In this document: positions 2 to 2,323 of the stretch, piece after piece
Layout: the number at the start of each line of letters is the position of its first letter
How positions within the stretch are numbered: the first letter of the stretch is position 1
Notes under the pieces: model-generated
What the model was told of the DNA's origin: nothing
The model's input: the letters and a program-made list of their open reading frames with translations, nothing else
Databases searched by the model: none
Position numbers and translations under genes: made by a program
NCBI GenBank assembly: GCA_046754005.1
Contig: JBHHUV010000001.1
Location: 1 to 24,906, forward strand
DNA length: 24,906 bases
From: Phycisphaerae bacterium
Lineage (GTDB): Bacteria; Planctomycetota; Phycisphaerae; UBA1845; UTPLA1
Direction: 5' to 3'

Positions 2-2323
2 GGAGGTGTGGGTGGCGGTATGGGAGGCGCCACAACGGATACAGGGATTGAACCATCCGATGAATCGACGCAACCGGAACGTGTAACTCCACCTGAAGAA
101 GATTCCCCCCCAGGGGAATCGAGTCCGCCGCCAGCCGACGCAGAGCAACCCTCGCGCACCCAAGATGAGCCGCCCGGAGAGACGACGCCGGACTCCTCGG
201 AGCAGCTTCCCCCGCCGGCACATTCTGAGCAACCGCCGGAACAACCGGATGAACGGCCTGAGGGGACGACGCTTCCACCCGAAGAACCGGTTGAGCCTCC
301 CCGGCATCAAACCGAGTCTCAGGACACGGCAACGCCCACACCCGAGGAGCAACGGGCCGCCGCCGAGCAACGCCGGGATGAAGGACAACAGGAGCAGGAG
401 GCCGCGGCGGAGGATACATCGTGGTGGGGAATCGCGGGAAATACCTGGACAAACATCACGAATGAAGTGTCCCAAACGATCTCAGACATAGGCGAAGGCA
501 TCTCAAATGCCGCCGAGGCGGTGGAAGAAGCTGCTACAGATGTATACAACGATCCCGGAATCCTGACGGATACGATCTGGGAGACGGGGAGTGATATCAC
601 CCATGGGGTAGTCACTGGTGTTCAGATCGCGGGGAATGCGGCTCTCGACGCAGCCGAGGGGGTGGCTCAGGCAGCGGTCGACACGTATAACAATCCCGAA
701 CTGTTTGGCGACACACTCGTCGGCATGGCGGACGACATCCAATCCGGAACCGAAGCAATCGGGAATGCGGTGACCAATCCGGAAAACATCATCAAGGTCG
801 CCGAGACCATGTCGGGTCTGGAGAACTTCGAAAATTCCCTGGATCCGAATCGATCGCTGCCCAACCGTATTGGGCAGGTCGGGCTGGGTGTTGCAAACCT
901 GTATGGCACACTGGTCACCGCCGGCGCGGCGGCGTCGGGGATCAGGAGCGGCGCGAGCAACTTGATTGGTCGATTACCAGGCCAGGCAGCCGGTCTGACG
1001 GATGATGCCGCTCGGCTCGGGGCGGCGGGACTGTTGGATGATGGCGCTCAGGTCGCAGCCGGAGCGGGCGGTCTGACCGACGATGGAGTCCGGATAGCGG
1101 CGGAGGCGGGCGGTCTGACCGACGATGGAGTCCGGGCAGCGGCGGAGGCGGGCGGTTTGACCGACGATGGGGTCCGGGCAGCGGCGGGGACGGGTGGGCT
1201 GACCGATGATGGTGTTCGAGCCGGCGCAGGGGGGTTGACGGATGACGGGGCGCGAGCAGGCGCGGGCGGATTGACGGACGACGGCGCCCGCGCCGGCGGC
1301 GGTGCGGCTGGAGTGACGGATGATGGCGCCAGAGCCGGCAGTGGTGCAACGGGGGCGGCGGACGATGGGGCCAGAGCGGGCGGTTCGAAGCTCTCTCCGG
1401 AAGAGAGGTTACAGCGGCAGTCCTACTCCGATCGTTTACGAAACAGAGAATTACGTGCGGACTCCACGATCCGTCCGGGCGATCCGAGTGATTTTTCGGT
1501 GGCGGAAGGCGTTGTGGCGGATACCAGCGGCTATGCAAAGGTCAGCGAGAAGAATATTCAAATGGTAGCGGACAAGTACGGCGTCAAGATTCATACGCGA
1601 CCGACGAACCCCATGGCCAAAGAATTGCTCGAAAGTGGGGAGGCGTTGGCCAAGCCGCAATACGTGAAGACGAAATCCATCAACCCGCTGGATACCTACC
1701 TGGGCGCGGAAGCCGACGAGGTCGGGAAGGTCGGCTACTTCAAACCCAAGAAACCGATCGCAGGCGAGGTACCCGCCGACAAGTGGGACGATGTGATGAA
1801 ACGTTATAATACGCGGGCCAAGGAGTTTGCGGATCAGGCGGAGGACGTCGCGAACAATCCGACGCTGCGGCGGGAGGGCAACCTCATCATCGACGTGGAG
1901 ACCGGCAAGCCCTTTACGGGAGACGTCGATGGTTTTGCGATTCGTGGCATGCACAATGAGACGCTTCCCAAGTCGGTCGTTGAGCAGATCGAGAGAGAAC
2001 TCATCCAGGGGCCGGGCCATACGAAGCACGGGTTCCATACCGAGTGGGATTACAGCGGCTACTCAAGGACGGCTCCCACCGGAGGCGGGCAGTCGCCTTA
2101 CGACGTGTCCAGGGGCATCGACCAGACAATCCGGCGCGGCCATGCTCCGGTGGTCAAGCAGATCGATCCGGAGACAGGTGAAATATTAGGCGAAAAGGCG
2201 GGTGAAGCATTGGTATCCTATACCGGTGGTGAAGCCCTCTCCCCTGGCATGAGTCGCAATCCGACGGCGAGCTGGTGGCACGGAGGGGCGACGAACCCGT
2301 TGATAAAACCGCCAACGCCGTAG
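2..2323 (+). CDS. Polymorphic-toxin-like protein with a C-terminal edema factor/ExoY/CyaA-like nucleotidyl cyclase domain (probably 5'-partial)
   Basis: The frame is open from nt 2 with no upstream stop, so the true start may lie outside the window (GTG 8 and ATG 20 are possible). Order of regions: Pro/Glu-rich stretch, helical region, Gly/Ala repeats, then TRPTN (R at 1598), AKPQYVKTKS (K 1652, K 1673), FTGDVDGF (D 1922, D 1928) and KHG (H 2027). These match EF FRPVN, TKGLNVHGKS, TADYDLF and NHG. Confidence 0.8.
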   Translation, partial: GGVGGGMGGATTDTGIEPSDESTQPERVTPPEEDSPPGESSPPPADAEQPSRTQDEPPGETTPDSSEQLPPPAHSEQPPEQPDERPEGTTLPPEEPVEPPRHQTESQDTATPTPEEQRAAAEQRRDEGQQEQEAAAEDTSWWGIAGNTWTNITNEVSQTISDIGEGISNAAEAVEEAATDVYNDPGILTDTIWETGSDITHGVVTGVQIAGNAALDAAEGVAQAAVDTYNNPELFGDTLVGMADDIQSGTEAIGNAVTNPENIIKVAETMSGLENFENSLDPNRSLPNRIGQVGLGVANLYGTLVTAGAAASGIRSGASNLIGRLPGQAAGLTDDAARLGAAGLLDDGAQVAAGAGGLTDDGVRIAAEAGGLTDDGVRAAAEAGGLTDDGVRAAAGTGGLTDDGVRAGAGGLTDDGARAGAGGLTDDGARAGGGAAGVTDDGARAGSGATGAADDGARAGGSKLSPEERLQRQSYSDRLRNRELRADSTIRPGDPSDFSVAEGVVADTSGYAKVSEKNIQMVADKYGVKIHTRPTNPMAKELLESGEALAKPQYVKTKSINPLDTYLGAEADEVGKVGYFKPKKPIAGEVPADKWDDVMKRYNTRAKEFADQAEDVANNPTLRREGNLIIDVETGKPFTGDVDGFAIRGMHNETLPKSVVEQIERELIQGPGHTKHGFHTEWDYSGYSRTAPTGGGQSPYDVSRGIDQTIRRGHAPVVKQIDPETGEILGEKAGEALVSYTGGEALSPGMSRNPTASWWHGGATNPLIKPPTP
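992..1375 (+). repeat. In-frame tandem repeat: 10 units of G-L-T-D-D-G-[VA]-R plus a Gly/Ala spacer (12 or 14 aa; 36 or 42 bp)
   Basis: Unit starts at 992, 1028, 1070, 1112, 1154, 1196, 1232, 1268, 1310 and 1352. Units 3-5 are nearly identical at DNA level (gcgggcggtctgaccgacgatggagtccgg). Confidence 0.95.

Follow-up and report, generated by a model that had tools for sequence, protein, structure and literature searches.

The locus and its modular protein

The window analysed here is a stretch of 24,906 nucleotides that starts with the first base of a 24.9-kb contig (JBHHUV010000001.1, assembly GCA_046754005.1) of a Phycisphaerae bacterium, and its first gene encodes a large modular protein that ends in a compact nucleotidyl-cyclase-type domain of class II, i.e. 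of the kind found in the anthrax edema factor (EF), Bordetella pertussis CyaA and the ExoY proteins. The open reading frame (ORF) occupies 2..2323 of the plus strand including the stop codon and is thus open at its 5' end; 773 amino acids (aa) are visible in translation and the N-terminus is lost at the contig end. Residues are numbered on this 773-aa visible translation throughout; an initial annotation, made from the sequence alone, counted from a GTG at nucleotide 8, which gives an offset of +2. On the same strand there follow a gene of the DUF8367 family and a third gene, and the three genes recur together as a cassette in other genomes. The metagenome-assembled genome (MAG) behind the contig is 67% complete and derives from a hydrothermal vent sample; when residues 1-560 of the related protein P0006 were searched against the remainder of the MAG, the missing N-terminal anchor was not found.

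The cyclase-type domain (aa 490-773, with a core of aa ~500-720; 1469..2320) was delimited by a profile search of the PDB, an AlphaFold2 model, Foldseek and VIA-align, and is preceded by a series of quite different modules. An acidic Pro/Glu-rich linker with PPG motifs (aa ~17-135; 50..406), read directly from the translation, resembles the linker that follows the membrane anchor in relatives such as P0006. A conserved alpha-helical scaffold domain (aa ~140-330; 419..991) was recognized by BLASTP of aa 1-480 against relatives, and is common to many of them as well as to P0153, a protein with a different C-terminal tip. Just ahead of the cyclase-type domain Tandem Repeats Finder locates about 10 tandem units of 36-42 nucleotides (1060..1381) that encode GGLTDDG[VA]RAGA repeats; the central units are ~90% identical at the DNA level. 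Since similar repeats of the form x-D-D/E-x-A-R/A-A-G-A precede the tip in P0003, P0004, P0006 and P0153, the array is part of the scaffold and not of the cyclase domain. The complete protein would therefore be expected to run from a membrane anchor, as judged from the relatives, through the acidic Pro-rich linker, the helical domain and the Gly/Ala/Asp repeats to the cyclase-type domain.

Relationship to the class II cyclases

The domain belongs to a large family. A phmmer search over 1.8 billion cluster representatives yielded 542 relatives at E<=1e-3, 316 of which also pass E<=1e-10, and among the matches listed the domain is C-terminal in nearly all proteins, the lengths of which range from 600 to 6,000 aa. 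Against PDB sequences, phmmer with the single domain sequence produced nothing above noise. When a profile built from 76 relatives was searched against all PDB sequences, only class II cyclases rose above noise, with E-values of 7.4e-7 for CyaA, 7.6e-7 for the Vibrio ExoY (Vn-ExoY), 3.4e-5 for EF and 0.11 for Pseudomonas aeruginosa ExoY. The profile alignment spans both the paired lysine (K/K) block and the DxD block, and in the latter the family sequence GKPFTGDxDxF pairs with GIPLTADIDMF of CyaA. The Pfam family of the anthrax toxin catalytic domain (Anthrax_toxA, PF03497) is matched individually by 33 of the 76 members, the best at E 1.1e-7, and hhalign of the family against EF alone recovers the first block only, at a probability of 69%. 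Neither a local Pfam scan nor the precomputed hits provide a Pfam family for the cyclase-domain proteins, though the latter do include DUF8367.

The predicted structure points the same way. An AlphaFold2 model computed with the 76-sequence alignment reached a pLDDT of 94.8 and a pTM of 0.90, and a single-sequence model was unusable (pLDDT 33). The two-lobed CA/CB catalytic fold of the class II cyclases is present in the predicted model. In a Foldseek search of the PDB the top 24 matches were all EF, CyaA or ExoY chains (E 5.5e-6 to 8e-2), unrelated structures beginning at 0.37; the Foldseek probability was ~1 for 22 class II chains, and the far greater size of the known enzymes kept the global TM-scores to the PDB class II chains down to 0.24-0.35. 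VIA-align superimposed 190 residues of the model on the complex of EF with calmodulin and 3'dATP (1K90) at 3.5 Å with a Z-score of 11.6, model residues 13-282 running co-linear with EF 293-637. All 18 class II entries gave Z-scores of 8.0-11.6 over 169-200 aligned residues, and the best non-cyclase a Z-score of 2.6. The comparison with EF and ExoY structures that the initial annotation had proposed as the check on its assignment has thus come out in its favor by both Foldseek and VIA-align, and the homology that it claimed to the catalytic core of EF, CyaA and ExoY is borne out by a profile that matches only class II cyclases (E 7e-7 to 1e-1) as well as by the fold (Z 8-11.6).

Among shape searches of predicted structures, the ESM Atlas gave only matches with TM < 0.3. 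The closest clusters in the AlphaFold DB consist of C-terminal domains that are uncharacterised, one of which sits on a protein named "Pre-toxin TG domain-containing" (TM 0.73), and the next matches are to proteins named for the EF central domain and to eCIS-core and Tc-type (insecticidal-toxin-complex) proteins.

Catalytic residues

The translation carries IHTRPTN, AKPQYVKTKS, FTGDVDGF and TKHGFHTEW in that order, and these contain R533, K551, K558, D641, D643 and H676. All of the R/K/K/D/D/H motifs named in the initial annotation are accordingly present in the order it gave, at its residue numbers +2, and the EF residues that it named (R329, K346, K353, D491, D493 and H577) agree with the letters of the pXO1 cya product, on which H351, S354, K372 and N583 of EF were also verified. 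In an alignment of the 76 relatives, which are 27-59% identical to the window protein, R533, K551, D643 and H676 are invariant (76/76 each), D641 is kept in 75/76 and K558 in 71/76, and the residue after K558 is Ser or Thr in 76/76. W682 is found in 71 of the 76 relatives, and R605, D564 and G640 are likewise conserved. Because the motif set is conserved across the 76 relatives, and because the profile matches only class II cyclases in the PDB, its occurrence goes beyond chance.

The triphosphate-binding block, R533 ... K551-x4-K556-x-K558-S559 (1598..1678), rests on the hmmsearch and hhalign alignments together with conservation; in these R533, K551, K558 and S559 align with EF R329, K346, K353 and S354, and the Lys pair with K58/K65 of CyaA. 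The metal-binding block, G640-D641-V-D643-G-F (1919..1936), is the second stretch of the profile alignment and is also conserved, D641/D643 aligning with D188/D190 of CyaA (TADIDMF), which are D491/D493 in EF. The third block, H676-G-F-H-T-E-W-D (2027..2050), is a candidate match of H577-G-T-E-Q-D-N in switch B of EF, and H676 is a candidate counterpart of EF H577, to judge from the co-linearity of the fold alignment and the local likeness of HG.HTEWD to HGTEQDN. The conserved catalytic residues argue for an active enzyme that uses nucleoside triphosphates (NTPs), with cyclisation as the default expectation by homology.

Compactness and the activator-binding regions

Spacing of the motifs sets the family apart from EF in a specific manner. 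The distance from the Arg to the first Lys is 17-18 aa in the family and 17 in EF; however, from the second Lys to the first Asp there are 83 aa in the window protein (family median 88, range 82-101) versus 138 in EF, and from the first Asp to the His 35 aa (family median also 35) versus 86 in EF. The values of 83 versus 138 and 35 versus 86 had been given before, and measurement on both sequences reproduces them. The catalytic core is ~100 residues shorter than that of EF.

In EF switch A comprises residues 502-551, switch C residues 630-658 and the helical domain residues 659-800, and switches A and C are the surfaces through which EF, CyaA and ExoY are activated by calmodulin or actin (PMC9223806). 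The 51-aa deficit between the first Asp and the His equals the length of switch A, and 35 aa leave no room for a switch of 50 aa. The end of the chain corresponds to about EF 637, so that most of switch C (630-658) and the entire helical domain (659-800) are absent. Spacings and fold alignment therefore uphold the earlier description of the domain as compact and devoid of the EF helical domain, and in the predicted model the known cofactor-binding regions are absent from the domain.

The DUF8367 partner gene and the third gene of the cassette

The gene directly downstream (2466..3284, plus strand) encodes a DUF8367 (PF28040) protein of 272 aa, which on the basis of the precomputed PF28040.1 assignment and of co-occurrence is probably the cognate immunity protein or inhibitor. 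PF28040.1 is assigned to the exact 272-aa product and to all 120 relatives among the matches listed; 395 relatives are found at E<=1e-5. The protein is 47% identical to the product of the gene after P0006, and no Sec-type signal peptide is evident at its N-terminus.

Linkage of DUF8367 to the cyclase domain was examined by searches of the window and 12 fetched loci with hidden Markov models (HMMs) from three alignments (cyclase domain, DUF8367 and gene 3). The cyclase domain, DUF8367 and gene 3 occur together in the window and in L011, L012, L013, L014, L020, L028 and L029; the cyclase domain and DUF8367 without gene 3 are found in L016 and in L026, a short contig; the cyclase domain is alone in L021; and DUF8367 is found without the cyclase domain in L022 and L027. 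A DUF8367 gene thus follows the cyclase domain in 10 of the 11 cyclase-bearing loci, directly downstream in the window, L011, L012, L013, L014, L020, L026, L028 and L029, and ~1 kb downstream in L016, where the domain belongs to a 2,495-aa WXG100-like giant in an ESX-type locus of Nocardia inohanensis. L028 and L029 were located by way of DUF8367 and so provide an independent check of the linkage. In addition, DUF8367 occurs in 3 of 401 sampled genomes of the window's phylum, and in 3/3 it lies directly after an ORF with the cyclase domain.

The third gene (3316..4812, plus strand) was resolved by Pfam scans into a ~340-aa conserved N-terminal domain, a GYF_2 domain and a C-terminal zinc ribbon, and its product is 50% identical to that of the third gene of L011. 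The ~340-aa N-terminal domain has no Pfam or PDB profile match. Gene 3 is present in eight cyclase loci and in L022, the tip of which is not a cyclase, and it is absent from the WXG100-type L016. From this distribution it follows that DUF8367 accompanies the enzyme domain from one unrelated scaffold to another, and gene 3 accompanies the membrane-anchored scaffold.

A language-model feature search drew the third gene weakly (0.81) toward the EspG / YfjC-like type VII secretion accessory proteins; a role as an EspG-like chaperone was set aside, being a language-model lead that the Pfam and PDB profile searches did not confirm. The GYF_2 domain spans aa 399-444 of the product (window 4510-4647). 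Proline-rich peptides of the PPG type are ligands of eukaryotic GYF domains, and the linker of the toxin is proline-rich with the sequences SPPGES and EPPGET; a direct contact between the linker and GYF_2 of the third gene product is conceivable.

Exchange of the C-terminal tip and occurrence on other scaffolds

The L022 locus suggests how the scaffold and its tip may part company. P0153 of this locus (L022:7001-10817) shares its helical domain and repeats (aa 144-461) with the window protein at 40% identity, and its last ~280 aa have a HELDH motif (HExxH, zincin-like) and neither a cyclase-profile match nor a Pfam match. The gene is followed by a 99-aa ORF, which is a candidate new immunity gene, and then by DUF8367 and gene 3. 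This is the pattern expected if a new tip and immunity pair had displaced the old tip and the old immunity gene had remained, although it is a single example. One DUF8367 protein is fused to Imm35.

The domain is also found as a module of giant proteins of actinobacteria (Nocardia, Streptomyces, Amycolatopsis), some of which have WXG100-like N-termini (WXG100_2) and some of which also carry RelA_SpoT, GH-E nuclease, glutamine deamidase or TcdA/TcdB-type modules. The description of the window protein as polymorphic-toxin-like consequently finds support in the tip swap of P0153, in the occurrence of DUF8367 across scaffolds, and in the WXG100-type and pre-toxin-TG proteins.

Distribution within the window's phylum is patchy: cyclase-domain matches at the search threshold occur in 4 of the 401 genomes, and a weaker one, in G267, by direct HMM search. 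One genome of this phylum, G128, has five paralogous ORFs of ~1,600 aa (L005, L006, L008, L009 and L010) with a divergent, internally placed version of the domain that matches the profile in two pieces, at positions ~3-121 and ~140-193; a DUF8367 search of the G128 genome gave no match at E<=1e-5.

Topology of the relatives

Close full-length relatives appear in two forms. In one a zinc ribbon is followed by 5-9 hydrophobic transmembrane segments, mostly even in number; in the other a signal peptide precedes an ectodomain of ~300 aa, a single Gly/Ala-rich transmembrane segment and then a cluster of Lys and Arg residues. The number of transmembrane segments was estimated by a crude hydropathy scan. 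Genes for secretion machinery are not conserved around the cassette in the loci examined.

Four relatives (P0020, P0022, P0027 and P0033) have at positions ~290-400 a conserved P-G-L-[ST]-G-x-G-x-L-P-G-P sequence, a Gly/Ala-rich transmembrane segment and a K/R-rich stretch. This segment resembles a C-terminal sorting signal in its succession of motif, transmembrane segment and basic tail, yet it lies in mid-protein, before the linker and toxin part.

Proposed function and its alternatives

The observations are best accounted for by a minimal class II cyclase core carried as an exchangeable C-terminal tip, i.e. by a cofactor-free toxin that consumes NTPs, is used against bacteria and is countered by DUF8367 as the immunity protein, a reading to which we assign a probability of roughly two in three. 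The enzyme would be active without a eukaryotic cofactor, as suggested by the lack of the switch regions and by the requirement for a partner gene, and would convert NTP to cyclic NMP and pyrophosphate at a high rate or carry out a closely related nucleotidyl transfer. A bacterial cell would be poisoned by the drain on its NTPs and/or by flooding with cyclic nucleotides; DUF8367 would bind and block the enzyme inside the producer, and the zinc-ribbon/GYF product of the third gene would serve the scaffold in its handling, release or export and not the enzyme. Cofactor independence and a bacterial or protist target fit the apparent lack of switch A and switch C in the modelled domain. The further proposal that the domain is a constitutive, cofactor-independent class II cyclase, employed by bacterium against bacterium or as a suicide effector and checked by DUF8367, and that it represents the minimal form from which EF, CyaA and ExoY differ by their activator-binding switches, is offered tentatively, at somewhat less than even odds.

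A number of results weigh against the toxin reading. The window protein itself scores only 13.2-13.7 bits against PF03497, where the cut-off is 25 (E 0.08-0.09), and over profile positions 5-59 only. The position of EF H351 and CyaA H63, the proposed catalytic base, is occupied by K556 in the window protein and by Lys in 73/76 and His in 2/76 of the relatives, and an Asn counterpart of EF N583 is not evident in the H-G-x-H-x-x-W-D context of the family; with Lys at the H351 position and no established counterpart of N583, cyclisation as opposed to other nucleotidyl transfer or hydrolysis is not certain. No trafficking domain was matched by Pfam in 49 close full-length relatives, neither of the PrsW type nor of another known processing type, and in relatives with an ectodomain and a single transmembrane segment the positive-inside rule indicates that the cyclase end should lie in the cytoplasm of the producer. 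The L021 locus has the cyclase domain without DUF8367. Three scores predicted for a complex between the domain and DUF8367 were 0.00, 0.55 and 0.19, with a median of 0.19 where the mark is 0.32, and they speak neither for nor against binding; in principle DUF8367 might activate the enzyme instead of inhibiting it. The domain is, on balance, a compact and separate branch of the class II cyclases, which has their fold and their substrate- and metal-binding residues and departs from them in its score against the Pfam threshold, at the H351 position and in its activator features.

A cytoplasmic cyclase end fits a self-directed effector as well as it fits a toxin prior to export, and the principal alternative is accordingly a membrane-tethered effector whose domain resides in the cytoplasm of the producer and is held off by DUF8367 until a signal at the envelope or from a phage, or cleavage in the linker or repeats, frees it to drain NTPs or raise a cyclic-nucleotide alarm, with growth arrest or abortive infection as the outcome. 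The enzymology is the same as in the toxin reading. Relatives with a cleavable-looking signal peptide, an ectodomain, one transmembrane segment and a K/R stretch would place the C-terminal ~600 aa inside, other relatives begin with a zinc ribbon that would be cytoplasmic and have mostly even numbers of transmembrane segments, and neither an obvious signal peptide on DUF8367 or on gene 3 nor conserved neighboring secretion machinery is seen, all of which would suit such an effector. This topology, however, derives from the crude hydropathy scan mentioned above, and two further occurrences speak against such an effector, namely that in an ESX locus secreted giants of the WXG100 type combine the domain with a DUF8367 gene, and that the domain is also carried by pre-toxin-TG proteins; moreover, the replacement of the tip in L022 with a leftover DUF8367 and the fusion of Imm35 to DUF8367 are hallmarks of the competitive evolution of toxin and immunity genes. 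We therefore consider a self-directed effector unlikely, while regarding it as the main rival.

Class II cyclases are inert in bacteria and are switched on by calmodulin or actin in animal cells, and all those characterised to date are activated by the host (PMC9223806). By this precedent the window protein might be a eukaryote-directed toxin that is silent until it meets a host protein, perhaps a cofactor other than calmodulin or actin, and the insecticidal-toxin-complex and eCIS-type proteins among the AlphaFold DB neighbors are in keeping with this; but a conserved, dedicated partner gene would be needless for an enzyme inert in bacteria, the domain lacks switch A and most of switch C, and the source is a hydrothermal-vent metagenome, so that this explanation appears quite improbable. 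A housekeeping cyclase of the receptor type, which produces a second messenger for normal signalling under the control of DUF8367 as regulator or activator, would be compatible with those relatives that look receptor-like (ectodomain, transmembrane segment, cytoplasmic enzyme) and with conservation of the partner, yet the domain is scattered very patchily among genomes and is met within multi-toxin giants, a metallopeptidase-like domain can take its place as the tip, and no gene for a cyclic-nucleotide receptor is seen in the cassette; we hold this to be very improbable indeed.

The family is large (542 representative clusters at E<=1e-3), unannotated and mostly from environmental samples, and it keeps the catalytic residues without the activator-binding parts and is paired with a partner protein of its own. 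If the enzyme is active alone, the class II fold would have a life beyond host-pathogen biology, a natural protein inhibitor of class II cyclases would exist, and toxins of the NADase and (p)ppApp synthetase kinds would be joined by a further nucleotide-based mode of interbacterial killing; experiments could then also address how the host-activated toxins arose.

Comparison with known cyclases and toxin systems

The catalytic domain of EF (EF 291-640; 1K90, 1K8T; PF03497) has the same CA/CB fold and the same R/K/K-S/D/D set, and, like EF with its H577, the window domain has an invariant His in an HG..E.D context. Identity between the two is ~12-16%, and a Lys replaces EF H351. Unlike EF, the window domain is without an insert of switch-A size, most of switch C, the helical domain and the protective antigen (PA)-binding domain; the window domain also has a dedicated DUF8367 gene as its neighbor, which EF has not. 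B. pertussis CyaA (2COL, 1ZOT, 1YRT) is the best profile match and gives fold Z-scores of 10.4-10.7. CyaA has a switch A of 76 residues (199-274) and requires calmodulin (PMC9223806); it is joined to an RTX haemolysin translocator, in contrast to the membrane-anchored scaffold that bears the domain of the window type. The ExoY-type cyclases (P. aeruginosa, 5XNW/7P1G; Vibrio MARTX, 8BJJ/8BR1/7P1H) give fold Z-scores of 9.3-10.9. As with MARTX ExoY, the family domain may form a single module within a giant that bears several effectors; the sensor and anchor regions by which ExoY binds actin (switch A and C) are absent from the window domain. Delivery of the known ExoY cyclases is by a type III secretion system or by MARTX.

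With the polymorphic toxin systems (PMC3482391) the cassette shares a conserved scaffold, an exchangeable C-terminal enzyme and a 3' gene of the immunity type, as well as orphan and fused immunity genes and the occurrence of the same tip on several delivery scaffolds. It differs from them in that its close relatives have no recognized trafficking domain and in its conserved third gene. A term search of the first 300,000 characters of the 2012 polymorphic-toxin census (PMC3482391) found no class II cyclase among the toxin domains. Literature searches found no paper on DUF8367 or on the compact cyclase family, and none that assigns a class II cyclase to a polymorphic or interbacterial toxin system.

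Other genes of the window

A zinc-ribbon ORF of 238 aa (4691-5407, plus strand) shares ~120 nucleotides with the 3' end of gene 3; at a similar position in L021 there is a membrane protein with a zinc ribbon and DUF1453 (CcdC-like). A cluster of lipoprotein-like genes (5458-17006) includes a CHAT protease (6868-9780), FlgO-like proteins (10253-11941; 15903-17006, minus strand) and a Trypsin_2 protease (13456-16023, minus strand). A functional link of the toxin to this CHAT/FlgO/protease lipoprotein cluster was considered and is unsupported, as the cluster lies beside none of the other cassette loci examined. In L028 two proteins with zinc-ribbon and FGE-sulfatase domains come directly after the cassette (L028:9135-11625), and the window has a TPR and FGE-sulfatase protein (17313-19463) 12.5 kb downstream of its cassette; the occurrence of FGE-sulfatase genes near both cassettes may be a coincidence.

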